DNA of 64,000 bases from Pirellulaceae bacterium (lineage in GTDB: Bacteria > Planctomycetota > Planctomycetia > Pirellulales > Pirellulaceae), in assembly GCA_963851305.1 (NCBI GenBank), contig CAWKOT010000011.1:329716-393715 (forward strand). The letters run 5' to 3'. Under the pieces are notes generated by a model. The model saw only the letters and a program-made list of their open reading frames with translations. It was not told the origin of the DNA and searched no databases. The position numbers were made by a program, and so were the translations under genes. Numbering within the stretch: position 1 is the first letter of the stretch; each line of letters begins with the position of its first letter. Positions 1 to 19,328 of this stretch are shown piece after piece.

Positions 1-16
1 TCGCTTTCGACGGGCG

Positions 17-1183
17 ATGCGACGTTCCCGAATTCGTACGACGCCGCGATACGAAGTCCAGTTGTTCAAGGACCGGATTGCATCGCAAATGTCCATCCAG
101 GAAGAGATCCTGTATTCGATTGAGGGCCAGCGTTTTGACAATCTTCCGGACGAATCAACGACCAGATCCAATTTGCTGCGATTCAATTACCAGCCCCGAC
201 GTTCGCGTTCAAATCACCTGACGGCCTACGATGCCCGGTCCGGACGACTGTTGTGGACGTTGCCGCCGCTGGATTCGGAGTCCGATCAGGTACCCGATCG
301 GGAGGTGGAGAGTCCCTGGCTACAGTCGGGAGGCTTCATGTCCGCGCCCATCCACTACGCAGGGTTGGCGATCGTACCGGTTAACCAGTCCGGTGCGATT
401 TTCATTTATGCCCTCGATCCGATGCAGGATGGAAAAACGGTCTGGAAGTCCTACCTGTGTGACGAATCGGATTCGGGTGCCAATCCTTACTCGCCAATCA
501 ACCTGTCTATCAATGGCAGCGATCTGTTTGCCAGTTGTGGCCTGGGGGCGGTGTTTATTCTGGATCCCGCCACAGGACTGATTCGTTTTGCCAAGCGTTA
601 CCCCCGGCGGGGCAAGATCAACATGACCACCGGTCGATTTGGCCGTGGCATGCAACAGATCCAGTTTGAATCCTGGTCCTCCGATACCGTGCTGGCCTAT
701 GGCCGGCAGATGATCTGTTTTTCCAGTGATGCCCGTAACATTGAAGCCCACGACAGGAATTCCGGCGAGTTGATCTGGCGAAGTGATGTTTCTCCTTTGG
801 AAGCCAAGGTTGATTACCTGCTGGGTCTGTACGACGGTGTGCTCTACGCGGCTGGTTCGGAAACGATCCTGGCATTCGATTTGCGACAGGAGGGAAGGAT
901 GGTGTGGGGCGGCAAGCGTCTGTTCGGTGGCAAGCTGAGCTATGGTCGAGGCATGTTGACGCCCGACGGGATCTACGTGCCGGTGGATGACAGCATCTGC
1001 AAGTACAGCCTGACGGGTCGCGGTGGCGACGCGGTGCTGTTGGGTAAAGTGAATGTCGATCTGGGAACCGGAGCACCGGTCGGGAACCTGTACAGCGACG
1101 GACAGAAAATCTGGGTGCATGGTGCCAACCGGATTTATGCACTGGCACGCGGGATGCGAAAAATCCGATCGGAATCGAATTGA
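17..1183 (+). CDS. PQQ-like beta-propeller repeat protein (BamB-like); probably partial at its 5' end
   Basis: 388-aa ORF with repeated beta-propeller blade motifs (GxxLWT, DGxLYA, GxIYV) typical of PQQ-repeat proteins. The ORF starts 17 nt from the window edge. Confidence 0.55.
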   Translation: MRRSRIRTTPRYEVQLFKDRIASQMSIQEEILYSIEGQRFDNLPDESTTRSNLLRFNYQPRRSRSNHLTAYDARSGRLLWTLPPLDSESDQVPDREVESPWLQSGGFMSAPIHYAGLAIVPVNQSGAIFIYALDPMQDGKTVWKSYLCDESDSGANPYSPINLSINGSDLFASCGLGAVFILDPATGLIRFAKRYPRRGKINMTTGRFGRGMQQIQFESWSSDTVLAYGRQMICFSSDARNIEAHDRNSGELIWRSDVSPLEAKVDYLLGLYDGVLYAAGSETILAFDLRQEGRMVWGGKRLFGGKLSYGRGMLTPDGIYVPVDDSICKYSLTGRGGDAVLLGKVNVDLGTGAPVGNLYSDGQKIWVHGANRIYALARGMRKIRSESN

Positions 1184-1230
1184 CAGGGACCAGACAAGGC
1201 CGATGCAGCTCGCGGCGGCAGTGAGAGAAT

Positions 1231-3814: not shown

Positions 3815-3829
3815 GGCTGATCCAGATTC

Positions 3830-6067
3830 ATGAACCATAAAAATCGCCAGCATCTTAAACTGCCTGCCGAGATCGCCGCGCAATTGCGCGAACTGCGTCG
3901 ACGCCTGAAACGCTGGGTGTTGATCCGCGGCCTGAGCCGGTGGCTTCTACTGGTGCTGGCCATTATCGGGTTCGACATCCTGCTGGATCGGTTCTTCAAG
4001 ATGGATTTCGCGCAGCGGGCGATCATGTTGACCGTCATGCTGCTGCTGTTTGCAGGACTGTTCCTGTGGCGCGTGGTACGACCCTTGATGTCGCGCATTT
4101 CCGATAACGGGCTGCTGCTGGAAATCGAAAACAGGCATCCCGAACTGAAAGAGAATCTGATTAGCGGAGCGCAGCTTGCCCAGCAATCGGATTTGGAATC
4201 CAAAGGCGTGTCCCTGGAATTGGCGAACGCGACCATTGAACGCAGCCTGGAACTGGCGCGGCGGTTGGACGTCAGCGATACCATCAATCAGGTGGAAAAC
4301 CGGAAAAATGCAGCGCTGCTGGGAACGGGTCTGTTGCTGGCCCTGGCGCTTGCGGCCGCGGTCGGACAGTCCAGCTTTTTTCGCACCTGGTTCAATCGCA
4401 ATATTCGGTTGACCTCAGATCAATGGCCCCAGGCAACCTACTTGCAGATTGTGGGCGCCCGGGATGGCGAATTGGTGCTGCCGCGGGGTGTGGACCATCG
4501 GTTGATCGTTGAAGTGACTGAAGATAGTCGAATCAGGGACGTCGACGTGTTTCTGGAAATCGATGGTGCCGCCGGGCAAACGGTGCATCAGATGAAACCC
4601 ACGGGCAAGCGGAATGGGCGTGAACATCTGTTTGTGATGCACAACGTGACCTCCGAAGCTCGATTGCGGGCCCGCGGCGGAGACGATATCACGTCGCAGG
4701 TTGCCATCCGGCTTGTGGAACCGCCGGCCATTATGGATTTGCAGCTGTCGGCGGTGTTGCCCTCGTATACCCGGATGCCGGACCGGCGGCTGGAAGGCCC
4801 GGGGCCGCACAGCTTGCTGGCCGGTAGCCGTGTCGATGGGATCGCCCGCGTCAACAAGAAGCTGCAGAAGTTTCAATTGACCAGTGAGGGCCAGGTCGTC
4901 AATTTGCAGCCAGCCGACCAGGAAGACGTTTACCAGTTTCAAATTCCAGGAACTGACCAGCGACTGGCCGGCGGTCGGTACGAATTCAGTCTGGTGGACG
5001 AAGCGGGGCTGGCCTCCACGCGCCCAAGTCGCTTTACGATCAATATCAAGGAAGACCAGCCGCCGCGTGTGCGGGCGACGTTGCTCGGCATCAGTGGACT
5101 GGCGGTCCCCCGCGCTCGCATCCCGCTGTCCTTTAATGCCCGGGACGAATATGGGCTGGCTACGGTCGGCTTTCAGGCCAACTGGAAAAATGCGGATCAG
5201 GAAGACAGCGATTCTGGTAAAGAACGTGCTTTGCCGATCAGGAAATTTCCCTCGGGGCAGGAACCGGTGTTACAGCATCAGGATGTGGCCGTGCTGGATC
5301 TTGAACCGCTGTTGCTGACGCCGGGTACCAGTTTCCGGCTGTTGATTCGCGCCACCGACACTCGTCCCGGTCAACCCAACGCGGGGGATTCCCCGGAATT
5401 TCTGCTCCGGATTGTGTCGGAAGAGGAACTTCGGGCAGACCTGTTGCGTCGAGAAATAGAGCAACGGAAGGCCTTTCAACGGGCTTACGATGCACAACTG
5501 GAAGCGATGGCTGAGTTGCAGGCGATTACGGCGACAGGAGCTTCGCCATTGGATCGGAACGACGCCGGCACCGACCGGCCGTCGCGGATGATTGGGCTGG
5601 TGCGAGACCAGAAACTGGTGGGAACCAGTCTGGCGGCCATCGCTGATCAATTTGAAGAGTTTCTCGTGGAGGTGCAAAACAATCGACTCGACGAAGAAAC
5701 ACAGAAGATCGCCGGCGCACAGACGATTACCGATCGCTTCGACAATCAGATTGTTCAACCGATTCGAGCTTTGGATGCGGAATTGATCGCGGTGGCGACC
5801 CGTGGACTGGATAATTGCCGCCGATTGCTAAACGACCAGACCGGACTGGCCGCGGCGGTCGAATCGACAACGTCGATTCAGCAACAGATTCTGGACGAAA
5901 TGCAGCGGATCATGGCGGCCATGGTTGACTCCGAAAATTACCAGGAAGTGGTCAACAAGCTGCTGGAGATCAAGCGGGGCGAAGACCGGATCAAGTCGGA
6001 AATCAACAGCCGGAAAGAGAAACGGAATGAAACGATCATCGAAGAAGATATTTTTGACGACGATTGA
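3830..6067 (+). CDS. membrane-anchored hypothetical protein (large extracytoplasmic domain, C-terminal coiled coil)
   Basis: 745-aa ORF. N-terminal TM helices (WLLLVLAIIGFDILL, IMLTVMLLLFAGLFLW) precede a long soluble region. It follows the VWA gene in the same orientation with a 16-nt gap. Confidence 0.5.
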   Translation: MNHKNRQHLKLPAEIAAQLRELRRRLKRWVLIRGLSRWLLLVLAIIGFDILLDRFFKMDFAQRAIMLTVMLLLFAGLFLWRVVRPLMSRISDNGLLLEIENRHPELKENLISGAQLAQQSDLESKGVSLELANATIERSLELARRLDVSDTINQVENRKNAALLGTGLLLALALAAAVGQSSFFRTWFNRNIRLTSDQWPQATYLQIVGARDGELVLPRGVDHRLIVEVTEDSRIRDVDVFLEIDGAAGQTVHQMKPTGKRNGREHLFVMHNVTSEARLRARGGDDITSQVAIRLVEPPAIMDLQLSAVLPSYTRMPDRRLEGPGPHSLLAGSRVDGIARVNKKLQKFQLTSEGQVVNLQPADQEDVYQFQIPGTDQRLAGGRYEFSLVDEAGLASTRPSRFTINIKEDQPPRVRATLLGISGLAVPRARIPLSFNARDEYGLATVGFQANWKNADQEDSDSGKERALPIRKFPSGQEPVLQHQDVAVLDLEPLLLTPGTSFRLLIRATDTRPGQPNAGDSPEFLLRIVSEEELRADLLRREIEQRKAFQRAYDAQLEAMAELQAITATGASPLDRNDAGTDRPSRMIGLVRDQKLVGTSLAAIADQFEEFLVEVQNNRLDEETQKIAGAQTITDRFDNQIVQPIRALDAELIAVATRGLDNCRRLLNDQTGLAAAVESTTSIQQQILDEMQRIMAAMVDSENYQEVVNKLLEIKRGEDRIKSEINSRKEKRNETIIEEDIFDDD

Positions 6068-6082
6068 AGTTCGACCTGGTTT

Positions 6083-8233
6083 ATGAAACTGCGAATGGAT
6101 CGGAAGAAACCCATGTTGGATCATCTCATGACAGCCCGGAACGCAACGTTTGTCGTGATCCTCTGGCTGGGTTACGGCTTGAATCTGTACGGGCAGCCGG
6201 ATGACGCGTTGCAGAAATCGGAACTGGGTGCACGGCAACGCCTGGTCGAACGAAAAATGGTCGAACTGGAAAACCGGTTTACGGCCATCGCGGAAAAGTT
6301 GAAGGACAAGGAACCGGAGCGTCATCAACGCTTGGTGGCAGCATACCAGCAGGCAAAAGAGGATCTGATCACCCGCAAGATGGCGGAGATTGGCCAGTTG
6401 CTGGACGCTGGACAACTGGAGCCGGCGGAAGAAAAACTGGGACAGGTTATTCAGGCATTGGACGACCTGGTCCGCTTGTTGCTGAACAATCAGTCGCAAA
6501 AACCCGATCGGCAGGAACAGATTGCGCAACTTGAGGCCTGGAAGAAAACCATTCAGCAGTTGCGGCAAGAGCAGGTTCAGCAACGTACCGAGACCCGCAA
6601 GGTATCCAATAAAGACGCTGAGATTGCGAAGCTGGACGAACAGCTGAAGAAACTGGATGGTCTCATTGACCGTCAACGAGGATTGATCGAACAGTCGCGA
6701 CAGGCCGGCAACGCGGGTTTGCGAGCCCTCGACAAGGTGGCTGATCGCCAATTTGAATTGAGACAGGACACCCGGAATCTGGCTCGGGATGTGGCGGGTG
6801 AAAAGCCGGCTGCGGGAGACGGTCGACCGTCCTCGCCGACAAATGCCGAGTCGTCGGATGCGGCGGCACCGGATCGCCGCGGCGAAAACCAGGCGCAACC
6901 CGCCGGCCAGGGACAGGAATCGGATGCTGACTCAAGCGGCGAGCCATCAGACGAAGCCGCGGAACAACCTTCGGACAAGCCGCCAGGCGACGCATCCGAT
7001 GATTTACCCCAGCAGTCGCAATCCGGCAAGGATCCCAGGTCGGGTGGAAAATCGGGCGGCGACGGGTCGCCTGCCGGCCAGGCCGGTCGATCGGACAATG
7101 GGAACCAGCCGCCCCAGCCGGGACAAGCGCCGCTGGAGAAGGCGGCCGAGTCCCAGGCACGAGCGGAAGAGGATCTGGGCAGTGGGCGACCAGCCGACGC
7201 GGAGCGTCAGCAGCAACAGGCCCTGCAACAGATGGAACAGGCTCGATCGGAGCTGAAGAAAGAGCGACGACGACTGGCTTCCCTGCCGCCTGAGGCGGTC
7301 AAATCCATGGCTCGCAAACAGCGCCGTACGCGTGACAAGGCGCTCGAACTGGTGGAACAGATGGCCGAGGCACCGACTCAGGAAACCGGGCAGGATGAAC
7401 AGCAGGTCAGCCAGCCCAATGCGCCCAGCCAACCTGGGCAACAACCGATGAAACAGGCCTCCGAATCGATGCAGGGGGCCGCCGACGATCTGGAACAGCA
7501 GGACACCAGGCGGGCAGAAAGAAAACAGCAGCAGGCGCAAGAGAAACTCGATGAAGCGTTGGAAGAACTGGAAGAGAGACTGAATCAGCTGCGGGAAGAA
7601 ACCCGCGAAGAGAAACTGCGGCGCCTGGAAGGTCGCTTTCGCGAAATGCTGGATCGACAACGTTCGGTCAGCATGACCACGATTGAAGTCGACGACAGAA
7701 AAGTCAACCTCGGCCAGTTGCAACGACGGGATCAACTGGTGGTCTTACGGATGGCAACGGAAGAACTTGAAATCGGTGAACTGGGCCAGCAGGCTTATGA
7801 TCTGTTGCTGGAAGACGGTACCAGCGAAGTCTTCCCGGAAATGGTTCAGGATTTGAGGAGCGATCTGATCCGAGCCGGTGATCTATTGCAGCAGGAGCGA
7901 ACGGATCAGTTGACGCAATTGTTACATCAGGAAATTGAGTATGCGTTGCTGGATCTGCTGGGTGCGCTGGCGGAATCCAAGGACGAAGGCGATCAACAAG
8001 GGGGCGGTGGAGGCGGTGGCGGTGGCGACCAACCGTTGCTCAAGCCATCAGCGGAACTTAAAATGTTAAGGGCGGCTCAACAGCGTTTGAATCGCAAGAC
8101 CACTCAGCTGGATAGCATCCGAAATGCACGCGCAGGTCAGGACGATTCGCTGCGTCGGGAAATCGAAGGCCTGTCCGCTCAGCAGTCGAAGCTTCAGGAA
8201 ATGGCGGAGCAGATCATGGAAAAGGAAAACTGA
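6083..8233 (+). CDS. hypothetical coiled-coil protein with acidic, Q/E-rich low-complexity region and a poly-Gly tract
   Basis: 716-aa ORF with an N-terminal hydrophobic segment, long heptad-like E/Q/R-rich stretches and a GGGGGGGGG tract near the C-terminus. Several long antisense ORFs inside it are artefacts of GC-rich low complexity. Confidence 0.5.
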   Translation: MKLRMDRKKPMLDHLMTARNATFVVILWLGYGLNLYGQPDDALQKSELGARQRLVERKMVELENRFTAIAEKLKDKEPERHQRLVAAYQQAKEDLITRKMAEIGQLLDAGQLEPAEEKLGQVIQALDDLVRLLLNNQSQKPDRQEQIAQLEAWKKTIQQLRQEQVQQRTETRKVSNKDAEIAKLDEQLKKLDGLIDRQRGLIEQSRQAGNAGLRALDKVADRQFELRQDTRNLARDVAGEKPAAGDGRPSSPTNAESSDAAAPDRRGENQAQPAGQGQESDADSSGEPSDEAAEQPSDKPPGDASDDLPQQSQSGKDPRSGGKSGGDGSPAGQAGRSDNGNQPPQPGQAPLEKAAESQARAEEDLGSGRPADAERQQQQALQQMEQARSELKKERRRLASLPPEAVKSMARKQRRTRDKALELVEQMAEAPTQETGQDEQQVSQPNAPSQPGQQPMKQASESMQGAADDLEQQDTRRAERKQQQAQEKLDEALEELEERLNQLREETREEKLRRLEGRFREMLDRQRSVSMTTIEVDDRKVNLGQLQRRDQLVVLRMATEELEIGELGQQAYDLLLEDGTSEVFPEMVQDLRSDLIRAGDLLQQERTDQLTQLLHQEIEYALLDLLGALAESKDEGDQQGGGGGGGGGDQPLLKPSAELKMLRAAQQRLNRKTTQLDSIRNARAGQDDSLRREIEGLSAQQSKLQEMAEQIMEKEN

Positions 8234-8289
8234 TCCATGCTGATCCGTCGGCGCAAGGACGCATTCATTGACGCATTGAAAGTACCAAC

Positions 8290-9348
8290 ATGTTTTTCAA
8301 AGCAGGGAACCGATTGATTGCCTTGCAGGTGGCCATCCTGGCGTCGTGCTTAGGTATCGGTTTTGCCGCGGCGGACGGGACTACCGACGAAGCGCTGGTC
8401 GATGCGTTTCTGGCTCATGTGGCTGACCTGGAAACGGTGGATGCTGACAAGTTGGAACAGGTTAACCGCATCGTGGCGGAATGGAGGTCGGACTCTCCGG
8501 CCGACGCCCTGACGGAATCAATGATCGCGATTTACGATGGTTACGCTGCCGCGATTGAAGCGTCCGATGGCACCGAATCGAGCGATGCCGCCAGCCTGCT
8601 GGCACCGTTTGCCGATTCGCCGGACAGCTATCTGGCGGCCGATGCGACCTTTTACCTGGCTCGCACCCTGATGAATCATGAAAAATTTGAAGACGCCCTG
8701 CCCTTGCTGGAAAAGGTCCTCGGACCCTTGTCCGATTACACGGTACACGTGGGACCGGCCCGTTTTTATCAGGGAGTGGCGTGGGCGGGACTACTGCAAT
8801 ATGACAAGGCGGTGGCCTCGTTGAAGGATTTCCTGCAGTCTTACCCCGATGCGCCGGAGCGGTTGCGTGTGGCGGCCTGGCGGCAAGTGCAGCAGCTACA
8901 GTCCATCCAGGAAGGGCAGATGGAAGACATCTACCAGCGAATGGACTATTCACGCCGTCGGTTGGCCCAGGTTAAATCCGGTGAACAGACGCAGGAACAA
9001 CAGGACCGGATTGTCCGCATGCTGAATCGCCTGATCAAGGAACAGGAAAAGAAAGAGGCAAGCAGTAAAAGCCAGAATCAGAAACAGCAGAATAAGCAGC
9101 AACAGCAGCAGCAACAGGCTAATCAGAAACGTCAGCCCAGCAAGAGCCAGACCGGCGGCCAGAGCAGTAATCCCAACGGAGAGGTCGTGAAGAAGTCCTA
9201 TAACGACGGACCGGCCAGTCCCTGGAGTCGTCTGCGAGATCGCAGCCGCGATCCGGCGAATAATGCCATCAAAGATAAATTGCCTGCTCGGTATCGCGAT
9301 ATCGTCGAACGTTACTACGAAGCGGCTAATGGGAATTCCGGGAAATAG
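8290..9348 (+). CDS. secreted TPR-like protein with a Q/N/K-rich tail
   Basis: 352-aa ORF with a signal-peptide-like N-terminus (LIALQVAILASCLGIGFAAA), TPR-like helical repeats and a QQNKQQQQQQQ tract. Confidence 0.45.
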   Translation: MFFKAGNRLIALQVAILASCLGIGFAAADGTTDEALVDAFLAHVADLETVDADKLEQVNRIVAEWRSDSPADALTESMIAIYDGYAAAIEASDGTESSDAASLLAPFADSPDSYLAADATFYLARTLMNHEKFEDALPLLEKVLGPLSDYTVHVGPARFYQGVAWAGLLQYDKAVASLKDFLQSYPDAPERLRVAAWRQVQQLQSIQEGQMEDIYQRMDYSRRRLAQVKSGEQTQEQQDRIVRMLNRLIKEQEKKEASSKSQNQKQQNKQQQQQQQANQKRQPSKSQTGGQSSNPNGEVVKKSYNDGPASPWSRLRDRSRDPANNAIKDKLPARYRDIVERYYEAANGNSGK

Positions 9349-9424
9349 TCGATTGCATTTACGCTCGGGTGGCATCACGACGGTGGTTTCGAGGTGGTCG
9401 GTAAACTACCTGCAAGTCATCCTG

Positions 9425-10606
9425 ATGGCATGGGCCGTCGGTATCGGCTGGTCCGCCAGCTTGCCCGCGGCAACGGATAATCTGGAAGACGTTCGTTTGC
9501 GACTGGTCAACGGATCCTCGATACGGGCCACGATCAATGCGATTGAGGAAGACGGTGCCGTCCTCGGCAGTCGGATCCTGCAGAACGTGACGCTGGAAGA
9601 AATTACCAATATCTCGACGGGAAGGTCGGCGAGGGAATTGGAATCGAAGCCGGTGGTGCGACTGGCTGCGGGCAGCCTGATTCCTTTCTCGCAGATCGCG
9701 GTGACCGGCGATTCGGCTCGGATGACCAGCGGTGATCAACAGCTGGATATCCCCCTGGAGTTGATTCGTGGGATCGTCTGGAAGCGTGGAGCGAACGTGG
9801 AAGCGGCCATGGTGGACCCGCCCAGCGACCAGGATTCCGTGATAGTGCAAACTCCCCAAGGGGATCGCACGGTAAATGGATTACTGGAATCGATCGACGC
9901 GACCCACGTCAGCATGGTTTATCAGGGAAAATCCAGAAGAATCCGGCTCGACAAGGTAAAAGCGGTCGTGCCCGCTGCATTGAAGCTTTCTCCCCCCGTG
10001 GGAACGTTGGCCACGATCCGGCTGGTCGACGGGGCAACGTTGGTGGGAGCCATTGAATCCTATCGCGAAAACGTGTTGACGCTGGCCCTGTCTGGACAGC
10101 AACCTTTCACGGTGATGGCGGCGAAAGTGTCCAGTATTTCCATCCAAACCGATCGAATTGCCTGGCTATCGGATCTGAATCCAGTTCGATCGGAGCAGCA
10201 GTCACAATTCGTGGCAGCCAGAAACTGGCAGCGGGATCGCAGTCTGCTCGGCAATCCGATCCGATTGAAATTCAACGCCAGCACGCGGATTCACGAATTC
10301 GAAAAAGGGATCGGCACGCGATCCTACACATCGCTTGTCTATGAAAACACCAAGGACTTCAGCCAGTTTCGGGCGGTCGTCGGAATTGATGTCGAAACGA
10401 ATGGTCATGGCGATTGTGAAATGGTGGTGGAAGGTGATGGAATTCGGTTGTGGTCGCAGCGCGTCCGGGCTACCGACGATCCGCTGCCGATCGTGGTCGA
10501 TATCGCCGGTATCCGGGAAATCGCCCTGATCGTTTTGCCGGGCGAGGATTTTGACCTTGCGGATCACGCCGACTGGGCGGATGCCCGGTTTACTCGAATT
10601 GACTGA
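9425..10606 (+). CDS. secreted protein with a C-terminal NPCBM-like (carbohydrate-binding-module-like) domain
   Basis: C-terminus GIGTRSYTSLVYENTKDFSQFRAVVGIDVE...DCEMVVEGDG..LW...PIVVDIAGIREIALIVLPGEDFDLADHADWADARF matches the NPCBM/NEW2 consensus. Start set at the internal Met preceding a signal peptide (MAWAVGIGWSASLPAA). Confidence 0.5.
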   Translation: MAWAVGIGWSASLPAATDNLEDVRLRLVNGSSIRATINAIEEDGAVLGSRILQNVTLEEITNISTGRSARELESKPVVRLAAGSLIPFSQIAVTGDSARMTSGDQQLDIPLELIRGIVWKRGANVEAAMVDPPSDQDSVIVQTPQGDRTVNGLLESIDATHVSMVYQGKSRRIRLDKVKAVVPAALKLSPPVGTLATIRLVDGATLVGAIESYRENVLTLALSGQQPFTVMAAKVSSISIQTDRIAWLSDLNPVRSEQQSQFVAARNWQRDRSLLGNPIRLKFNASTRIHEFEKGIGTRSYTSLVYENTKDFSQFRAVVGIDVETNGHGDCEMVVEGDGIRLWSQRVRATDDPLPIVVDIAGIREIALIVLPGEDFDLADHADWADARFTRID

Positions 10607-10625
10607 ACACAGGACGACCAACCCA

Positions 10626-12500
10626 ATGCGTGATTTGATGGGCCTTGGCAGTCTGGTTCGGCTGGCCGTTTTTTTTGCGGCCATGCTGACAGCGGCCAAC
10701 GCGGAAGATGACGTGGACCTGACGGACGACCAACGGTCCATCGTCAATCGTTTTCAGCAGCGTCGAATCGACACCATCGATCGTGTCATCGACAGTGTGA
10801 TTTCCATCTACGGCGAGCAGCGACAGGGTGGCGGTTCGGGTGTGATTATCTCACCGTCCGGTATCGGTTTGACCAACCACCACGTCATCATGGGTGCGGG
10901 CACTAGCGGATGGGGAGGACTGTCGGACGGAAAATTGTATTCCTGGAAGTTGATCGGAACCGATCCCGGAGGCGATGTGGCGATCATCCAGATGGAAGGC
11001 CGTGACGATTTTCCCTATACGCCGCTGGCCGATTCCGATCGCGTTCAGGTCGGCGACTGGGCGCTGGCCATGGGCAATCCGTTCTTACTGACGGAAGACC
11101 AGGTGCCCACGGTGACTCTGGGTATCGTCAGCGGCGTCAATCGCTACCAGGCGGGTGCTGGCATGAACCAGCTGGTGTATGGCAACTGTATTCAAACCGA
11201 CAGCTCGATCAATCCAGGCAATTCCGGTGGACCACTGTTCAACATGGACGCCCAGGTAATCGGCATCAACGGTCGCGGCAGCTTCAAGGAAAGAGACCGC
11301 GTCAATGTGGGCTTGGGCTACGCCATTTCAGCGAACCAGATCAAGAATTTCATCCCCGAATTACTGGCCACGAAACTGGTGGAACATGGCACGCTGGATG
11401 CCAGTTTTGAGGATCGCGACGGCAAAGTCGTGTGTGCCAGCCTGTTCGAAGATTCGCGTCTGTATCAACAGGGCGTCCGCCCGGGAGACGAGTTACTGGA
11501 GTTTGAAGGCCAGGTCATCTCGGCGGCCAATCAATTCACGAATTTGATCTGTACGTTGCCGGAAAACTGGCCGGCGTCCCTGTTATTGCGAAAGAACGAT
11601 GGCAGGACGTTGTCCGTCAACACGCGGCTATACGGTCTGCCCTACCCTACGCCACGACCGCCCAAGATACCGGAAAACGAAAAGGACTGGACGCCGGAGC
11701 AGCAGGAGCAGATGAAACGGGCCATGGCCATGATCGATCTGTTGTCCGCTCCGCCAGGCGAAATCCGGCTGGAGGATGTCAATCGACAGTATTGCCAGTA
11801 CATCATGGACCAATGGTTAGGTGATCGACCGGAACAGGATCAGCCGACTGAGTCGGACCGTGTCCGCATCTGGGAGATCCGGGATCAAGTCTCGCGGGAC
11901 GGTACCGACGTTGGGACTCAACGCATCCAGCTGGCCAGCGATGGTTCCTTTGCAATGAACACAACCATTGACGGTCGCGAAACCAGGCTGTTTGGTGACG
12001 ACGGCGTTGTTCGGGAGGTCAGGCAAGACCAGGCCAAATCGCTTTCGCCGGTGGAAGTCAAACTGAATCCGCTGGTGGTGCAGGCGTTGGGATTGCTGGC
12101 CGCCAACGATCTGCGTCGGTTTGATACGCTGGGCGAAACTCTGCTGGACGGCAGTGACAAGGCGTTATCGATGAACGCTTTTCGGCTCAAGGCCGTCGAT
12201 GACAAAGAAGATCCCTTTTATTTCTGGTTGTCGATGCCACGCGGCGGCGTGCATGGTCTCCCACAGTTGCTGAAGGCGGCCGCCGACATGAACTGTGAAT
12301 CCGAATCTGGCGGAGTGGTTTTTCAGGATTGGAAAACGGATCAGGGGCTACGAGTTTCCCGGTTGCGAAAACACGTTGCCGGCCTGGATGAAGCGGCACA
12401 GTTGGCTTTCCAGACCGTGAACGCGACTCATCGTTGGGTGGAAAGAGAACAGCTGCGGCAGGAGCTGGGGTTTCCTGAAACCATCGACGAACGACCATGA
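10626..12500 (+). CDS. HtrA/DegP-family trypsin-like serine protease with PDZ domain (catalytic triad intact)
   Basis: Signal peptide. His motif GIGLTNHHVI, Asp motif GDVAIIQMEG, Ser motif NPGNSGGPLF. PDZ-like segment GVRPGDELLEFEGQVISAANQF. Confidence 0.8.
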   Translation: MRDLMGLGSLVRLAVFFAAMLTAANAEDDVDLTDDQRSIVNRFQQRRIDTIDRVIDSVISIYGEQRQGGGSGVIISPSGIGLTNHHVIMGAGTSGWGGLSDGKLYSWKLIGTDPGGDVAIIQMEGRDDFPYTPLADSDRVQVGDWALAMGNPFLLTEDQVPTVTLGIVSGVNRYQAGAGMNQLVYGNCIQTDSSINPGNSGGPLFNMDAQVIGINGRGSFKERDRVNVGLGYAISANQIKNFIPELLATKLVEHGTLDASFEDRDGKVVCASLFEDSRLYQQGVRPGDELLEFEGQVISAANQFTNLICTLPENWPASLLLRKNDGRTLSVNTRLYGLPYPTPRPPKIPENEKDWTPEQQEQMKRAMAMIDLLSAPPGEIRLEDVNRQYCQYIMDQWLGDRPEQDQPTESDRVRIWEIRDQVSRDGTDVGTQRIQLASDGSFAMNTTIDGRETRLFGDDGVVREVRQDQAKSLSPVEVKLNPLVVQALGLLAANDLRRFDTLGETLLDGSDKALSMNAFRLKAVDDKEDPFYFWLSMPRGGVHGLPQLLKAAADMNCESESGGVVFQDWKTDQGLRVSRLRKHVAGLDEAAQLAFQTVNATHRWVEREQLRQELGFPETIDERP

Positions 12501-13531
12501 ATCACCAAACGATCACCGTCGTCACTTTCCTCATGGCCTGGATCGCCGGGCTGGTCCTTCTGCCCATCAACGATGCGGCGGTATCTGATACCGATGAGAA
12601 ACGCAATTTCCTGTCCGTGGTTGTCGAGCGGGCGCAACCAAGAATGGTCAAGGTTTATGGGGCGGCGGCAGGTCGGGTCGAAGGTTACGCCACGGGGATT
12701 ATCGTCAGCAATGACGGACAAGTCCTGACAACGCAGGGGGTCTTTCTGGATGGCAGCCAGATCCGGGTCATTACATCCGATGGAATCTCGCATCAGGCCA
12801 GCATCCTGCGGCGCGATCGGCAGCATCAGTTGGCCCTGCTGCAGATCTCGGCCCCAACGCCAGACTATTTTGATATCCGGGAATCCGATGTGGGCCGCCA
12901 GGGTGACTGGGTGATCGCCATCTGCAATGCCTTCAAAGTGGCCGATAAACAGGAGCCGTTATCGGCGACGTTGGGTGTGATTTCTTTGCGCACCAGTATG
13001 GAAGCGAGATTGAATGCCCGTGATGTGGCCTACCAGGGTGACTTGGTCCTGATTGATCAGATCACCAGTAATCCTGGCGCGGCCGGGGGAGCCGTCTTGA
13101 CCACCGACGGTCAGTTGGTCGGAGTGATTGGCAAGATCATCAACAGCTCGGAAACCAATACACGACTCAATTATGCCATCCCGAATTCGATTCTGGCCGC
13201 CTTTCTGGCCGAACGTCTCGATCAGCCGGCTGGTGCCGAACCGGAGCCAAAGCGGGCGGTTCAACTGGGGATCCGGATTTTTTCCCACGGGGGTCGCAAC
13301 AGTCCTGCCTATATCGACCGCGTGCAGCGTGGCAGTCCGGCATTCAAGGCGCGACTGAAACCCGACGATCTGTTGATCTCCATCGCCGGCGAAAAGATCG
13401 GCAATGTGCGCGAGTATCAGGCCGCGTTGAAGAAGCTGAAACCCGATCAGGAGACGATCATTGTGGTCAAACGGGGGGCGGAACTGAAGCGGGTGACAAT
13501 CATACCGGTAGCCAAGGGGTCCGTGCCATGA
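12497..13531 (+). CDS. HtrA-like pseudoprotease with PDZ domain (all three triad positions substituted)
   Basis: Start overlaps the upstream stop (ATGA). The protease fold is recognisable, but the His motif reads VLTTQGVFL (H to Q), the Ser motif reads NPGAAGGAVL (S to A) and the Asp position reads QLALLQI. A PDZ domain is retained (GSPAFKARLKPDDLLISIAGEKI). Confidence 0.75.
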   Translation: MNHQTITVVTFLMAWIAGLVLLPINDAAVSDTDEKRNFLSVVVERAQPRMVKVYGAAAGRVEGYATGIIVSNDGQVLTTQGVFLDGSQIRVITSDGISHQASILRRDRQHQLALLQISAPTPDYFDIRESDVGRQGDWVIAICNAFKVADKQEPLSATLGVISLRTSMEARLNARDVAYQGDLVLIDQITSNPGAAGGAVLTTDGQLVGVIGKIINSSETNTRLNYAIPNSILAAFLAERLDQPAGAEPEPKRAVQLGIRIFSHGGRNSPAYIDRVQRGSPAFKARLKPDDLLISIAGEKIGNVREYQAALKKLKPDQETIIVVKRGAELKRVTIIPVAKGSVP

Positions 13532-14643
13532 AGCATCCAACGTTAGAAAACGGGTTGAGCCGCATGACGATCTGCCTGGCGGTGCTGGTGTCATGCGGCG
13601 GACTGTTCGGTGCCGCATTGGCGACCGGGCAGGTCGCATCACCCAGCGATGATCTGGAAACGATGGCGTTGACGGCGCGAGCGTTTCGGCTGGCGGCTGA
13701 GAAAGTCCGGCCATCGCTGGTGGCCATTGAATCCTTCGGCGGTGTCGGTACCGTGCAAGGACAGATTGGCGGCATTCGGAAACAGGGCGAAGGTAATACC
13801 ACCGGTATACTGATCTCCGATGAAGGCCATATCGTCACCAGTACCTTCAACTTTATCCAGTCTCCTCCCGTCATCACCGTGATCACCAGCGATGGCGTGA
13901 GACGGTATGCCACATTGCTGGGGCGGGATGACACGCGAAAAATCTGTCTCTTGAAAATTGACCCGTTCGAGGGCCTGCGGTTGCCGGAGATTGCCGATGT
14001 CGATGCCGTGGTAGTCGGTCAATGGGCGATCTCGGTGGGAGTGGGGTATGGAGATGCCAATCCGGCGGTTTCCACGGGCATCATCAGTGCCAGGAATCGA
14101 ATTGGAGGCCGAGCCATACAAACCGATGCCAACATCAGCCCGGCCAACTACGGAGGCCCATTGCTGGACGTCGATGGCAAGATCATCGGCGTGTGTGTAC
14201 CCATGCATCCTCAATCCCAGGCCATTGGGGCGGGGGTGGAATGGTACGATTCGGGAATCGGATTCGCGATTCCGTTATCATCGGCCAAGAAGCTGATCGA
14301 GAGACTGAAAACGGGCGACCACATCTACCCCGCTTTTCTCGGCGTCCAGGTCGAACCGAATGCTCAGGGGGACGGCGTACGAATCAAGGAAGTCGTTTCC
14401 GATTCAGCGGCGGACAAAGCGGGGCTGGTCGCGACCGATGTGATTACCAGAATCAATGATAGGCCTGTCAATGATCTGATGGAATTGAGAGGCGTCTTGA
14501 ACCGGTTCGAGGCTGGGGACGAGATCACTGTCCATTTTCAACCCGGAGCCGACGCCACCGTCAAGAAAGTGACGGTCACGCTGGACCGAACACCCACGCC
14601 CCGGGATCAAACTCCACAGCTGGAACCGCCCGCCATTCGGTAG
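13528..14643 (+). CDS. HtrA-like pseudoprotease with PDZ domain (triad substituted)
   Basis: Start overlaps the upstream stop. The His motif reads IVTSTFNF and the Ser motif reads SPANYGGPLL (S to Y). A PDZ domain is retained (VRIKEVVSDSAADKAGLVATDVITRIN). Confidence 0.75.
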   Translation: MKHPTLENGLSRMTICLAVLVSCGGLFGAALATGQVASPSDDLETMALTARAFRLAAEKVRPSLVAIESFGGVGTVQGQIGGIRKQGEGNTTGILISDEGHIVTSTFNFIQSPPVITVITSDGVRRYATLLGRDDTRKICLLKIDPFEGLRLPEIADVDAVVVGQWAISVGVGYGDANPAVSTGIISARNRIGGRAIQTDANISPANYGGPLLDVDGKIIGVCVPMHPQSQAIGAGVEWYDSGIGFAIPLSSAKKLIERLKTGDHIYPAFLGVQVEPNAQGDGVRIKEVVSDSAADKAGLVATDVITRINDRPVNDLMELRGVLNRFEAGDEITVHFQPGADATVKKVTVTLDRTPTPRDQTPQLEPPAIR

Positions 14644-14746
14644 GTTGGCCCGGCCCGGGCTTGCAATAAACCAGCTCGCCCCTTGAGCCAAGTCCATTCG
14701 TTTCGAAGGCGCGGGATTGAAAGTAATTGCGGCATCCGTGCCTGGC

Positions 14747-15892
14747 TCAATTCCAACTCAAGCCTTCCGGCAATTCGTTCAGGGACTCGCAGCCATCGGC
14801 GCGTACAATCACCATGTCCTCGATGCGAATGCCGCCGACGGCTTTGGAGTAGAGTCCTGGTTCGATGGTGACCGCATCCCCTGCTACCAGTTCCGGGCCT
14901 TTGAAATCCAACAGCGGGGGTTCATGCACATCCAGGCCGACGCCGTGGCCAGTACCATGGACCATTCCACAGTAGTCGTCCGGCGCTGATTCGGCCGGTA
15001 GTCCGATTTGGAAACCAGGTTCCCTGATTTTTGCAATCACGGCCTGATGCACGGCTTCTCCCGTAACTCCGGCCCGTGTGGCCTGAATACCGCTGCGTTT
15101 GGCTTCAGCGACCGCCGTATGCATGCGGTTCACAACGTCGGAAATCGTACCGTGGACAACGGTACGTGTGCAGTCGCCATTGTAACCGGTGGATCGGTCC
15201 TTCGGAAAAATATCGACGATGACCGGTTCACCTGTTCTCAATGGTCCGCTGCCAATGTCGTGACAGTCTGCCCCTTGCGGACCGCCGGCAATGATTGCGG
15301 GACGAGGTTCAAATCCCTGGTTCAGCAGAAAGATATCCACCGCCGTTCGAACCCGTTCACTGGTCAGTGGCTGTCCATCATGCAGCAGACATCCATCGTC
15401 ATTCACCCGAGCCTGAGCAATCATTTCACAGGCCAGGCGGACGGCGTCTTCGGTCACGGACTGCGCTTTCCGTAGAAAGGCAACTTCCTCTGCGTCCTTG
15501 GCTCGCCGCTGGACAACGCCCATCTCAATATCGCAGGCGACTTCGATGCCCCGCTGACGAATCATTTCCGCAAAGATCAGGGGCAGCGTTCGGTCGGCGA
15601 CAACCGAGCGGACGCCCTGCCGCTCCAGGAACTCGGCCGCCGATTGTGCGGTCGCCGTTTCCCGATCTCCGGACAAGCCCTGTTCAGGTTCAAAATTTGC
15701 GGGACAGGCGATGTCGTCGGCACGGGCATGTTGTCGGGCCCGATGCATTTCGATGTCGCGCAGGATCAGCGTGGAACGATCGCCAACACGAATCAACGCG
15801 ACTGGATCGCCCACATTGAATCGAATGGCGTGGAATAACGCTGCGTTGGTTGCCGGGACCCCGGCCATAATCGTTGCAGAATTGGCAGGCAT
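14747..15892 (-). CDS. M24-family peptidase (Xaa-Pro aminopeptidase / creatinase-like)
   Basis: Creatinase-type N-terminal domain plus a C-terminal pita-bread fold with the HGTGHGVGLDVHEPP metal-binding motif. Start placed at the internal Met (MPANSATIMAG). Confidence 0.8.
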   Translation of the reverse strand: MPANSATIMAGVPATNAALFHAIRFNVGDPVALIRVGDRSTLILRDIEMHRARQHARADDIACPANFEPEQGLSGDRETATAQSAAEFLERQGVRSVVADRTLPLIFAEMIRQRGIEVACDIEMGVVQRRAKDAEEVAFLRKAQSVTEDAVRLACEMIAQARVNDDGCLLHDGQPLTSERVRTAVDIFLLNQGFEPRPAIIAGGPQGADCHDIGSGPLRTGEPVIVDIFPKDRSTGYNGDCTRTVVHGTISDVVNRMHTAVAEAKRSGIQATRAGVTGEAVHQAVIAKIREPGFQIGLPAESAPDDYCGMVHGTGHGVGLDVHEPPLLDFKGPELVAGDAVTIEPGLYSKAVGGIRIEDMVIVRADGCESLNELPEGLSWN

Positions 15893-16003
15893 ATCAGATA
15901 AGGCCGTTAGGAACTCAGATTGCAATAATATGACGGTATAACGGAAAATTATCATTGCAATCATCCCGAATTGCAACGAGTGACACGTTGCTCACAGGAT
16001 CGT

Positions 16004-17302
16004 TCAGGCGTCTTGCCGGCAATGCTGGAAACGCCGTTCCACGGACCGGGCATGTGCTGCCAGGCCTTCCAGTCGCCCCATCGCCTCGGCATCAGTCGCC
16101 AGGCCAGCTGCCGCGACAGGATCATCGATCTGGAGTTGCGTCTGCATTCTCAAGAAAGTGGCTACCGAAAGCGGGCTGTTGGCGCAGGCCGCGCCTCCGG
16201 TCGGCAACACGTGATTCGGCCCTGCTCCGTAATCTCCCAGGACCTCCGCCGCGTAAGAACCGACAAACAACGCCGCGCCCATGTCGAACGTCTCAGCGAC
16301 AGCTTCAAATTCAGCCCCTTGCAACGAGAGATGTTCCGGAGCGATTCGCCGACAACATTCGACCGCCTGTTCCAGGCCGTCCACCACGACGTATCCACCC
16401 GATTGCAAGGCCGTCCGGGCAACTTCTGCGGTGGGCAGGTCGGACAGCTGTTTCTCCAGTTCCGCAGTCACCGCGTCAACCAGTGCTGACGAATTCGTGA
16501 TCAGGATCGGGCGGGCGTCGACATCATGTTCGGCTTGAGCCAACAGGTCCGCGGCGACAAAACCCGCGTCGGCGTCGGCGGAAGCCACGACCACCAATTC
16601 TGACGGTCCCGCCAGCATATCGATTCGCGTCGATCGCGCGACGAGCGCCTTGGCTGCGGTGACAAACCGATTTCCTGGTCCCACAATCACGTCACATTTT
16701 GGCAGTCCGCTGTCCAGACCGGTGCTCATCGCGGCGATCGCCTGAGCGCCGCCCACCGAAATCAACCCGTCGGCGTCTGCGATGGCCGCCGCGGCCAGCG
16801 TCACCGCATCAGGTCGTGGTGAGGCGACCCAGACTTCCCTTACCCCCGCCACTCGAGCCGTCACGGCCGTCATCAGCACCGATGACGGCAACGGATAGCG
16901 ACCACCAGGTGCGTAACATCCGGCCGCCCGCAACGGAATCCAGCGATGGCCGACCGAACCACCCGGAATGTCGACGGAGCAATCGGTAAGTGTTGCCAAT
17001 TGGATTTCGGCAAAACGTCGAATGCGATCGGCAGTCCGCTGCAGCAGCGAACGGATGTCGACATCGACCGTTTGCAGCGCGTTCAACAAATCTGGGCGAT
17101 GTTGTACAAGCGTCGCGTCCTCGGACAGACCGTCAAACTTCGCCGCATACCGACGCACAGCGGCTTCGCCTTCGGCCTGCACATCAGCAACGATCTGGCC
17201 AGCGACGTGATACGTTTCGTCATCGATCGACGAGGTGATCTGGTGAAGTTCATCCGGTGGCAGCTGACGAAATGGAAACATCTTTCGGGATCCTGGGTTC
17301 AA
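16004..17302 (-). CDS. hisD: histidinol dehydrogenase
   Basis: 432-aa ORF. Motifs IPGGSVGHRWIPLRAAGCYAPGGRYPLPSSVLMTAVTARVAGV and AGPNHVLPTGG are characteristic of HisD. Last gene of the his operon. Confidence 0.9.
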   Translation of the reverse strand: MNPGSRKMFPFRQLPPDELHQITSSIDDETYHVAGQIVADVQAEGEAAVRRYAAKFDGLSEDATLVQHRPDLLNALQTVDVDIRSLLQRTADRIRRFAEIQLATLTDCSVDIPGGSVGHRWIPLRAAGCYAPGGRYPLPSSVLMTAVTARVAGVREVWVASPRPDAVTLAAAAIADADGLISVGGAQAIAAMSTGLDSGLPKCDVIVGPGNRFVTAAKALVARSTRIDMLAGPSELVVVASADADAGFVAADLLAQAEHDVDARPILITNSSALVDAVTAELEKQLSDLPTAEVARTALQSGGYVVVDGLEQAVECCRRIAPEHLSLQGAEFEAVAETFDMGAALFVGSYAAEVLGDYGAGPNHVLPTGGAACANSPLSVATFLRMQTQLQIDDPVAAAGLATDAEAMGRLEGLAAHARSVERRFQHCRQDA

Positions 17303-18579
17303 ACGGTATCTCTGCGTGTGACCTTGTCTGCACGTCGGTCGAGTTCGTGTTCGATTTCCGAGAGAGGGATCTGTTCTTTGGCCAAACGAGCCATCGTAAA
17401 GAAGATCACATCGGCGGCTTCGTGAATCACATCCTGCCGGGCAACGGCCTCGTTCAACTCTCTGGCTTCCTCGGCTATTTTTTCAGCCAACAACGCGGGC
17501 GATTGAAACAGGCGATGGGTATACGAAGATTCAGGGGCCGTCCGCATCCGGTCGGCCAGCGTCGTCTCCAACCGCTGAATGCCCTTCAAATCACCGAAAC
17601 AGGTCGGTCGCGACAGATGACAGAATCCGTGTCCCTGCTGGTTCACCGCAAACATCAACGTATCGCGATCGCAGTCACAATGGATCGACAACATTTCTTG
17701 AGTGGCACCCGATGTTTCCCCCTTTCGCCACAGACCCCGTTTCCGCGAAAAGTAGTGCGCGGTTCCGGTATCCAGACTTCTCTGCACGCTTTCCAGGTTG
17801 GAATAGGTCAAGCCCAACGTCTGGCCGGAGGCATTGCAAACCACGGTCGGCCAGAGGCCGTCGGTTCGATCCGAAACCAGCGGTGCACAAAAACACTCCG
17901 CCAAAGTCAACTGCTCCGTGTACAAAGCCATGCCGACCTGGGCATCGATACCAAGTCGATCCAGGGCTGCGATCTCATCGACAGTGGCAACTCCGCCGGC
18001 GATCGTCAGTTGGGCATCTCCGGCGGCGTCCAGATATCGCTTGATCTGTTCAAGATCGATGCCCGCCATTCTGCCTTCCCTTTCAACGAAAGTGATCAGG
18101 AAGCCACCCACGAGATCGCGAAGCACTTCGATCCGCTCCAGCACCGTCGCGCCCGTTTCACGTGTCCAGCCTTGATCGACAACTTGACCGGTCGATCGGG
18201 TTGGATCTTCGGCCGTTCCGGTATGGACTGCGTCGAGTGCGGCGATCAGTCTGTTCCGAGGTAACTGGCTGAGAATCTCAGGTGTGGCGGCGGTGCCCAG
18301 GATCACCTTTTTTGCGCCGGCATCTAACCAGGAGATGGCGGTCTGCGCATCGCGAATGCCACCGCCGACTCGGCAGGGTGCCAAGGCCAACAGCTCGCGA
18401 ATGCGCTCCGTGTTATGGCCCTGTCCTCGGGCCGCATCCAGATCGATCACCGCGATCTCGCCGACTCGGCCGAATTTCTCGGCCAACGGTGCCGGATGGC
18501 CTGCGTTGAGCGCCTGTTCGCGACCGCCAATCAATTGTACGGCATCGCCTGATGCCAGATCTATCGAGGGGATTATCAT
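17299..18579 (-). CDS. hisA/hisIE: trifunctional HisA-HisI-HisE fusion (ProFAR isomerase + PR-AMP cyclohydrolase + PR-ATP pyrophosphatase)
   Basis: The N-terminal 235 aa, starting MIIPSIDLASGDAVQLIGG, is a HisA (beta/alpha)8 barrel. The middle region GETSGATQEMLSIHCDCDRDTLMFAVNQQGHGFCH is HisI. The C-terminal region YTHRLFQSPALLAEKIAEEARELNEAV...EAADVIFFTMARL is HisE. Confidence 0.85.
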   Translation of the reverse strand: MIIPSIDLASGDAVQLIGGREQALNAGHPAPLAEKFGRVGEIAVIDLDAARGQGHNTERIRELLALAPCRVGGGIRDAQTAISWLDAGAKKVILGTAATPEILSQLPRNRLIAALDAVHTGTAEDPTRSTGQVVDQGWTRETGATVLERIEVLRDLVGGFLITFVEREGRMAGIDLEQIKRYLDAAGDAQLTIAGGVATVDEIAALDRLGIDAQVGMALYTEQLTLAECFCAPLVSDRTDGLWPTVVCNASGQTLGLTYSNLESVQRSLDTGTAHYFSRKRGLWRKGETSGATQEMLSIHCDCDRDTLMFAVNQQGHGFCHLSRPTCFGDLKGIQRLETTLADRMRTAPESSYTHRLFQSPALLAEKIAEEARELNEAVARQDVIHEAADVIFFTMARLAKEQIPLSEIEHELDRRADKVTRRDTV

Positions 18580-19328
18580 ATTCGGATCGCCTCTCCCATG
18601 GCTGCCAGTTCTCTTTTCAATTGACCGACCGTGGTCACGCCATCATGCAGAATCGAAGCCAGCAACACGGCGGCTGCGCCGGCCTGCAAACCAAGATGAA
18701 GGTGGTGTGCCGAATCGGCCCCTCCGGAAGCAATCACTGGAATCGCCAGCCGCTGCGTGACGGCGGCCAGCAATTCACAATCGTAGCCACGGCGAGTACC
18801 GTCCTGATCGAAGCTGGTCAGCAGGATTTCCCCGGCCCCGGCCGATTCGACGCGGGTCGCCCACTCGATGACATCCACACCAGTCATTTCTTTTCCGGCG
18901 TGCGTCAGAACATGCCAGCCATCTTCCGCTCGCCGGGCATCGATCGCCACAACGGTACACTGGCGACCGAAACGGTCGGCCATGGCCGTAATCAACTCCG
19001 GTTGCTGAAAAGCCGCGGTGTTGACGCTGACGCGGTCCGCGCCGGCATCGGTCAAACGTTGGACATCATCCATCGTCCTGACGCCGCCGCCAACGGTCAG
19101 CGGAATGGATAGCGATTGGCGAACGTCCTGTACCGTTTGCAATTGGGTCCGTCGGCGGTGATTGGTGGCGGAGATGTCCAGAACCACCAGTTCGTCCGCG
19201 CCCTGAGACTCATAGGCCGCCGCCAATTCGGCTGGGCTGCCGACATCTCTCAGTCCGGCAAACTTGACTCCCTTCACCACCCGATTGTCACTGACATCCA
19301 GGCAGGGGATGATCCGCGAGGTCAACAT
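18576..19328 (-). CDS. hisF: imidazole glycerol phosphate synthase cyclase subunit
   Basis: N-terminus RIIPCLDVSDNRVVKGVKF is a HisF hallmark. 250 aa. Overlaps neighbours by 4 nt. Confidence 0.9.
   Translation of the reverse strand: MLTSRIIPCLDVSDNRVVKGVKFAGLRDVGSPAELAAAYESQGADELVVLDISATNHRRRTQLQTVQDVRQSLSIPLTVGGGVRTMDDVQRLTDAGADRVSVNTAAFQQPELITAMADRFGRQCTVVAIDARRAEDGWHVLTHAGKEMTGVDVIEWATRVESAGAGEILLTSFDQDGTRRGYDCELLAAVTQRLAIPVIASGGADSAHHLHLGLQAGAAAVLLASILHDGVTTVGQLKRELAAMGEAIRI

Follow-up and report, generated by a model that had tools for sequence, protein, structure and literature searches.

HtrA proteases are textbook homo-oligomers. In DegS, DegP and HtrA1, activation runs from the PDZ domain or loop L3 of one subunit to the loops LD, L1 and L2 of its neighbour. 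The sole documented HtrA hetero-oligomer, the chloroplast Deg5-Deg8 complex, unites two HtrA paralogs at a defined 1:1 ratio, and is itself assembled from two homotrimers (PMC4877387). Among bacteria, the nearest precedent for the pairing of an active HtrA protease with a dead paralog is found in magnetotactic species, where one gene cluster encodes the active MamE and the dead MamO, the latter being retained by selection and promoting MamE non-catalytically (PMC4794232). Cases of the MamO type have come about through repeated duplication followed by loss of the triad (PMC4794232). In plant DEG7 an active and a degenerate protease domain share one chain, and the degenerate domain mediates trimerisation (PMC3194040). 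Here we analyze three consecutive genes for HtrA-like proteins, P1, P2 and P3, in a 64,000-nucleotide stretch of DNA (the window) from a Pirellulaceae bacterium of the phylum Planctomycetota (GenBank assembly GCA_963851305.1, contig CAWKOT010000011.1, positions 329,716 to 393,715 of the forward strand). We describe the state of their catalytic triads, the conservation and synteny of the genes, natural fusions among them and the fold of the C-terminal domain of P1. We propose that the three proteins form a periplasmic 1:1:1 heterotrimer of the HtrA type, in which P1 supplies the only catalytic site and the other two subunits are non-catalytic and carry PDZ domains, a reading to which we assign a probability of about 0.55.

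The three genes lie on the forward strand. P1 (10626-12500) is an open reading frame (ORF) for a catalytically intact HtrA-family serine protease of 624 residues counted from its ATG; an alternative TTG start at 10551 is less likely, and the database copy of the protein (P0241) has the same length of 624 residues. P2 (12497-13531, 344 residues) and P3 (13528-14643, 371 residues) are HtrA-like pseudoproteases, each consisting of a signal peptide, a dead protease domain and a PDZ domain, to which P3 adds a conserved C-terminal tail. As the original prediction had it, stop and start codons overlap by ATGA at both junctions (12497-12500 for P1/P2 and 13528-13531 for P2/P3). Among the relatives, a -4 (ATGA) overlap is possible in 30 of 75 loci at the P1/P2 junction, the rest being mostly -1, -8 or -11, and in 17 of 75 at the P2/P3 junction, where the other gaps are mostly below 25 nucleotides. 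Each of the three proteins starts with a Sec-type signal peptide, and so do the orthologs.

The triad positions were placed by residue-level phmmer alignment to solved DegP, DegQ and HtrA structures, together with a check of the codons. Matches to the structures of DegP, DegQ, DegS and HtrA reach E-values of 1e-34 to 1e-35 for P1, 1e-18 for P2 and 1e-28 for P3, and all three proteins match the Pfam Trypsin_2 model (E-values of 1e-28, 6.4e-18 and 9.2e-22, respectively). P1 is intact: His86 (10881-10883), Asp117 (10974-10976) and Ser200 (11223-11225) lie in the motifs TNHHV, GDVAII and GNSGGP, which align with the catalytic residues of Thermotoga maritima HtrA and Escherichia coli DegP, and the complete orthologs retain His in 71/71, Asp in 72/72 and Ser in 74/74 cases. 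With its trypsin fold, His-Asp-Ser triad and GNSGG oxyanion loop, P1 is by sequence a protease of the HtrA/DegP type (MEROPS S1C). P2 and P3 lack the S1C triad and, on the same alignments, are homologs of the family by fold and PDZ domain, not peptidases. The original claim that only the first protein keeps its triad thus survives alignment to solved structures, the residues being fixed across orthologs, and the substitutions sit on the true catalytic positions.

The identity of some replacement residues needed correction. In P2 the alignment to DegQ places Gly81 (12737-12739), Gln111 (12827-12829) and Ala196 (13082-13084) at the His, Asp and Ser positions, within the motifs TTQGV, HQLALL and GAAGGA. 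The earlier assignment of Gln, Gln and Ala holds for the second Gln and for Ala, but was off by one at the His position, which is occupied by Gly (TTQ-G-V). This Gly is a family-wide character, present in 82/82 orthologs and 120/120 homologs; Gln replaces Asp in 79/82 orthologs and 118/120 homologs, and the Ser position varies between Ala, Gly and Ser. In P3, likewise aligned to DegQ, the three positions hold Phe107 (13846-13848), Lys138 (13939-13941) and Tyr208 (14149-14151), within TSTFNF, RKICLL and ANYGGP. Tyr at the Ser position had been recognized correctly, but the His position is Phe (TST-F-NF) and not Ser or Thr, and the Asp position, on which the prediction was silent, is lost as well. 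Orthologs of P3 carry Phe in 80/80, Lys or Arg in 76/80 and Tyr in 79/80 cases. We extended the search for P3 exhaustively with HMMER to 1.84 billion representatives of 50%-identity clusters, which yielded 674 matches at E<=1e-30. Among the best 150 of these 674 representatives, nearly all P3-type modules replace His by a hydrophobic residue, usually Phe and occasionally Tyr or Ile, and have Tyr, rarely Phe, at the Ser position, the surrounding motifs being S-S-x-F-N-F and P-x-N-Y-G-G-P.

Both dead paralogs keep their PDZ domains, in agreement with the original prediction: the Pfam PDZ_2 model matches P2 at approximately 13265-13501 (E-value 6.4e-9) and P3 at approximately 14335-14577 (E-value 4.2e-13), with intact canonical QLGI and FLGV loops. 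The order of a Trypsin_2 domain followed by a PDZ domain with a hydrophobic-Gly-hydrophobic loop, with Pfam scores above cutoff, identifies P2 and P3 as HtrA homologs at the level of sequence. None of the three proteins reaches the equivalog cutoffs for DegP, DegQ, DegS, HhoA, MamE or MamO. Against the NCBIfam model TIGR02037 (Do family serine endopeptidase, a protease with two PDZ domains), which has a curated cutoff of 416.2 bits, P1 scores 195.5, P2 114.6 and P3 157.1 bits. Scores against the NCBIfam MamO model are 43.4 bits for P2 and 37 bits for P3, and those against the MamE models 44-92 bits, at a cutoff of 800, so that P2 and P3 do not belong to the MamO type. Source databases annotate P2 and P3 as 'S1C family serine protease' or 'serine protease Do'.

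P2 has near-invariant elements in an L3-like stretch, SLRT..RDVAY..ITSNPG, and in the motif SSETNTRLNYA. P3 ends in LEPPAIR (14620-14640), a version of the family consensus [QP][LM]EPPKIR-COOH; the KIR terminus occurs in 98 of 120 P3 homologs, and the tail also stands out as conserved when the orthologs are aligned. The tail may be a docking element or a PDZ ligand, which is a guess. The signal peptide of P3 in the window (residues 13-23, 13564-13596) contains a lipobox-like LVSC. We rejected a conserved lipobox on P2 or P3, as an LVSC-like motif occurs in 3 of 120 homologs; lipidation of P3 is therefore probably not a feature of the family. Many P3-type representatives are longer, with 640-700 residues, a second PDZ domain and a C-terminal extension. 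One such long form, from distant Planctomycetota (P0418, locus L088, 10001-12025), has a dead protease domain with Phe, Met and Tyr at the triad positions, two PDZ domains and a C-terminal region of ~220 residues, which looks alpha/beta-hydrolase-like by eye (a G-x-S-x-G-like 'AGSGA') and has no Pfam match. A P3-type pseudoprotease of 672 residues with Phe, Lys and Tyr (P0388, locus L087, 10001-12019) stands beside flagellar, GGDEF and pyridoxal-phosphate-enzyme (PALP) genes.

The dead copies are old. P1, P2 and P3 share 22-26% identity with each other, about as much as each shares with the HtrA proteins of E. coli. Close homologs of P2, at 56-76% identity, run into the hundreds, as do those of P3; the P2 of the window itself had no exact match in the contig index. 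Among species-representative genomes, 194 encode a relative of P2, of which the best 80 were taken for locus analysis; all of these 80 are Pirellulaceae, Mariniblastus or other Planctomycetota metagenome-assembled genomes (MAGs). The order P1-P2-P3 is kept in essentially all of the ~75 loci long enough to show it, and also in clusters that are merely 25-47% identical to that of the window. Two such distant clusters are in loci L085 and L088, the latter a complete eight-gene cluster with a long-form P3, 25-46% identical to the window's. By these sequence comparisons the arrangement is old and widespread in Planctomycetota. The genes with their substitutions turn up in ~80 independent species-level genomes, far more often than chance could explain. 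Because the paralogs are 22-26% identical and their order is conserved even in distant clusters, the dead copies are ancient and not recent duplicates; synteny in relatives, which the original prediction had proposed to check, is conserved, and a recent lineage-specific duplication is not the case.

Sequence constraint in the dead domains is high. In mean pairwise identity among 76 species, the protease domain of P1 stands at 0.83, its PDZ-like domain at 0.65 and its C-terminal domain at 0.31; the protease-like and PDZ domains have values of 0.65 and 0.54 in P2, and 0.71 and 0.39 in P3. The stretches of P2 and P3 equivalent to loops L1, L2 and L3 are almost invariant. These alignments indicate that the dead protease domains are under strong purifying selection and are more constrained than their own PDZ domains, which fits a structural or allosteric role better than mere ligand capture. 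The loss of catalytic residues, and nothing more, would suggest that P2 and P3 are decaying or redundant duplicates without function. The conservation data refute this explanation, to which we give next to no credence: the ORFs are intact in ~80 species, the dead domains retain 65-71% mean identity, the replacement residues are fixed and the paralogs are only 22-26% identical. Recent duplicates and decaying pseudogenes were rejected on the same grounds, and the earlier judgment that the trio is not simple redundancy stands.

The domain order of P1 is a signal peptide, a protease domain (Trypsin_2 envelope at 10833-11267, residues 70-214), a divergent PDZ-like domain and a C-terminal domain of LolA fold. 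All three proteins had been described as a trypsin fold plus PDZ, which is right for P2 and P3; the PDZ-like domain of P1 is divergent, and is recognized through phmmer alignment of residues ~257-335 (11394-11630) to DegP PDZ1 only. No Pfam PDZ model is matched by P1 of the window, and PDZ_2 is recorded for some of its orthologs. In the carboxylate-binding loop, HGTLDA, Asp replaces the usual Gly of the hydrophobic-Gly-hydrophobic pattern, and the sequence 'VEHGTLDA' is almost invariant across the P1 orthologs of Pirellulaceae. The distant lineages have TLQA (L085) or TLGA (L088) in its place.

The C-terminal domain of P1 (residues 345-624, 11658-12497), 280 residues long, was overlooked in the original prediction and matches no Pfam or NCBIfam family; judged by its low mean identity, it evolves fast. 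An AlphaFold2 model built on an alignment of 61 homologs has a predicted local distance difference test (pLDDT) of 91.5 and a predicted template modelling score (pTM) of 0.85, and Foldseek supports a LolA fold, with MucB, RseB and LprG among its matches. The model has the unclosed antiparallel beta-barrel and helical plug of the LolA superfamily (LolA, LolB, RseB, LprG), and on this structural prediction P1 is an HtrA protease fused to a LolA-fold domain, like those of lipoprotein carriers and sorting proteins. A parallel exists in the DegS/RseB (AlgW/MucB) envelope-stress pathways, where both PDZ-bound peptides and a LolA-fold sensor of lipid or lipopolysaccharide (RseB, MucB) govern an HtrA protease. 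In the DegS pathway of E. coli RseB is a separate LolA-fold regulator, whereas the LolA-fold domain of P1 is fused to the protease itself.

Natural fusions are known for every adjacent pair, P1-P2 and P2-P3, and for the triple P1-P2-P3. Fusions of P1 and P2 include P0278, as well as P0312/P0517, found on six contigs of independent origin (JGI, NCBI, ENA and Logan), the longest of 142 kb. P2-P3 fusions form a cluster of seven members (P0367), among them the MAG protein MBL8855770.1 from NCBI, and a second, far more divergent case is MHC4695131.1 (P0409). The triple fusion, P0375, is a protein of 1071 residues with His/Asp/Ser, Ser/Gln/Pro and Phe/Lys/Tyr at its three successive sets of triad positions; the LolA-fold domain of P1 and the tail motif of P3 are missing from it. 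The fusion ORFs are free of Ns and of internal stops, and their neighbours are as expected, with the NPCBM gene upstream and the remaining partner adjacent. In the downstream modules, linkers rich in Pro, Ala and Glu replace the signal peptides. Tandem active and degenerate HtrA domains of this kind resemble DEG7 and yeast Nma111. DEG7, a eukaryotic protein, has its one degenerate domain and its four PDZ domains on a single chain and forms a homotrimer, whereas the trio exists by default as separate, co-translated proteins, of which two are dead and which most likely combine in one mixed trimer.

The fusions bear on the possibility that P2 and P3 are independent periplasmic pseudoenzymes, holdases or adaptors that serve the same pathway and clients as P1 and form no stable complex with it. 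Dead HtrA variants such as DegP S210A keep chaperone-like binding, and the P3-type gene of L087 stands alone. MamO, too, promotes the proteolysis by MamE without a detectable physical interaction (PMC4794232). Against such independence speak the recurrent fusions in several lineages, with downstream modules devoid of their own signal peptides, the strict gene order with overlapping junctions, and the very strong conservation of the protease-like cores and not of the PDZ domains alone. We regard it as improbable. The trio is set apart from MamO in other respects as well. MamO has a transporter domain of the TauE type as well as a di-histidine metal site, and no contact between it and MamE was detected (PMC4794232); the trio has two distinct dead paralogs, each ending in a PDZ domain, without TauE, and its fusions point to direct assembly. 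Its setting is an envelope cluster of Planctomycetota, unlike the magnetosome setting of MamE and MamO.

The original prediction offered a protease-inhibitor pair as its alternative. P2, P3 or both would then bind P1, or poison P1 trimers, and keep P1 inactive until a signal frees it. The bulky Phe, Lys and Tyr that fill the former active site of P3 agree with this, and the conserved -EPPKIR tail could dock on a partner. The permanent covalent linkage of P1-P2 and P1-P2-P3 is hard to square with a releasable inhibitor, and the conserved canonical PDZ loops of P2 and P3 suggest the reception of ligands, which makes an antagonist quite unlikely, more so than independent holdases.

To model the triple fusion P0375 we used an alignment of 34 rows, composed of nine fusions and 5/10/10 single proteins, with homologs verified on their own modules; a broader set covering all three families was discarded, as MAFFT stacked the paralogs on one module. 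The AlphaFold2 model has a mean pLDDT of 74.8 and a pTM of 0.66, with low confidence limited to the signal peptide, the linkers and some loops. By our own estimate from the pTM formula, three folded but mutually unconstrained modules with ~187 disordered residues would give a pTM of ~0.34. The observed value therefore points to confident packing between the modules, as supportive but not decisive evidence. It also bears on an arrangement of separate P1, P2 and P3 homotrimers stacked into mixed hexamers or cages, as in Deg5/Deg8, the dead trimers acting as lids, platforms or regulators. Conserved synteny and coupling fit stacked homotrimers equally well as a mixed trimer. A P1-P2-P3 chain with short linkers and a pTM of 0.66 is more naturally a single intramolecular pseudo-trimer, and stacking has no need for the equal dosage that translational coupling brings. 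Deg5 and Deg8 moreover both keep their catalytic triads, without dedicated dead subunits, unlike the trio. We consider stacked homotrimers unlikely, if the most credible of the alternatives.

A heteromeric protease with non-catalytic subunits, as originally suggested, is thus the reading best supported by the comparative and modelling evidence: fusions without downstream signal peptides, short or overlapping junctions, purifying selection on the dead domains and the pTM of the triple fusion. Several observations pull the other way. The triple fusion has been seen on a single metagenomic contig, and the pTM argument is indirect, takes no account of the geometry of the model and builds on a shallow alignment of 34 rows. 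Fusions in general show a functional or physical linkage and fall short of proving a mixed trimer as against stacked homotrimers. The P2 of one distant lineage still has the Asp of the triad, and the change in the PDZ loop of P1 does not extend to every lineage, the Gly being kept in L088. The P3-type gene of L087 has no P1 or P2 within 10 kb, from which it follows that P3-type proteins are not always part of a trio. The assembly of the heterotrimer, its stoichiometry, activation in trans, proteolytic activity and the class of substrates are all matters that we infer.

Under the heterotrimer reading, P1, P2 and P3 would each be exported to the periplasm through their own signal peptides, in near-equal amounts owing to the tight coupling of their genes. 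The trypsin-fold domains would assemble into a 1:1:1 trimer with the sole catalytic site provided by P1, and the protease-like cores of P2 and P3 would serve as the scaffold of the trimer and supply inter-subunit activation loops. Recognition of ligands or substrates would fall to the canonical PDZ domains of P2 and P3; P1, with its altered PDZ loop, has instead the LolA-fold domain, a possible binding site for hydrophobic or lipidated ligands. If the trio works as DegS, DegP and HtrA1 do, with L3 acting on the LD loop of the neighbour, a ligand on P2 or P3 may switch on the single active site of P1 in trans. Engineered DegS trimers in which active and dead subunits are combined have reportedly been used to study trans-subunit allostery, and the trio would be their natural counterpart. 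A stronger version of the proposal, which we advance tentatively as possible rather than probable, is an obligately asymmetric HtrA heterotrimer, in which one catalytic subunit is joined by two anciently dead sensor or scaffold subunits, and the two distinct PDZ inputs and the LolA-fold sensor converge on one site, in the service of a phylum-wide envelope cluster.

The trio is the terminal module of a conserved envelope cluster of Planctomycetota and is probably engaged in envelope protein quality control or processing. Directly upstream of P1 lies a gene for a secreted protein (9263-10606, forward strand), which had been called NPCBM-like and indeed matches Pfam NPCBM (E-value 3.4e-28) over residues 300-444, a C-terminal NPCBM/NEW2 carbohydrate-binding domain. 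Its ORF overlaps the preceding gene, and the true start is therefore probably an internal ATG. The NPCBM gene occupies this position in most loci, including the distant L084, L085, L086 and L088. Further upstream, also on the forward strand, are ORFs for a BatA/VWA-like membrane protein in two frames (1278-1682 and 1637-3814, with weak VWA matches), a membrane protein of 745 residues (3830-6067), a coiled-coil, low-complexity protein of 716 residues (6083-8233) and a TPR protein (8290-9348, with weak TPR matches). The same upstream order of VWA, 745-residue, coiled-coil and TPR genes precedes NPCBM-P1-P2-P3 often in related loci, and also in L085 and L088. For the 745- and 716-residue proteins and their distant counterparts, Pfam and NCBIfam yielded no family. 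A PQQ/BamB-like gene precedes the cluster. The partner genes suggest an envelope-associated process.

The BatA/VWA-like gene is apparently split by a frameshift: an ORF of 134 residues with two transmembrane helices overlaps a VWA-like ORF of 725 residues in another frame. The two sum to ~859 residues, and the single gene of relatives encodes 860-861 residues. Either the assembly is in error here or the gene is a genuine pseudogene. With regard to Bat/MoxR-VWA operons, the window has only weak VWA/BatA-like and TPR matches, and no MoxR or DUF58 gene within 1-19,000. In L086, positions 1-5834 of the reverse strand encode a MoxR AAA+ ATPase, a DUF58 protein and BatA/VWA, a few kb from NPCBM, a P1-P2 fusion and P3. 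This context hints at a relationship between the cluster and Bat/MoxR-VWA systems.

Downstream of P3 an M24 metallopeptidase gene (14747-15976) runs convergently on the reverse strand, which makes P3 the final gene of its transcription unit. An M24 gene adjoins the trio also in L002, L003, L005, L019 and L063, in either orientation. Beyond it, at 16004-19328 on the reverse strand, long ORFs appear hisD-, hisA/hisIE- and hisF-like by eye from their translations only, and are apparently unrelated to the trio. A scan of 1-16,000 for promoters and terminators gave no excess over shuffled sequences and no useful signal.

In none of the related systems, MamE/MamO, DEG7 or Deg5-Deg8, is a live protease co-translated with a pair of distinct dead paralogs. 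Our literature search on HtrA pseudoproteases, hetero-oligomers and Planctomycetes found no description of the trio or its cluster, an absence that carries little weight given the incomplete coverage. If the proposed assembly is correct, it would be the first natural HtrA with a heteromeric basic trimer, contradicting the rule of homo-oligomers, and would offer a natural system for trans-subunit allostery and for the way in which HtrA proteases share out catalysis and sensing. P2 and P3 would define two very large unannotated families of pseudoenzymes, for which the label 'S1C family serine protease' is misleading. That an HtrA protease is fused to a LolA-fold domain suggests that the sensing of lipoproteins or lipids may be connected with periplasmic proteolysis, and the trio would give a handle on a conserved and uncharacterized envelope cluster of Planctomycetota.

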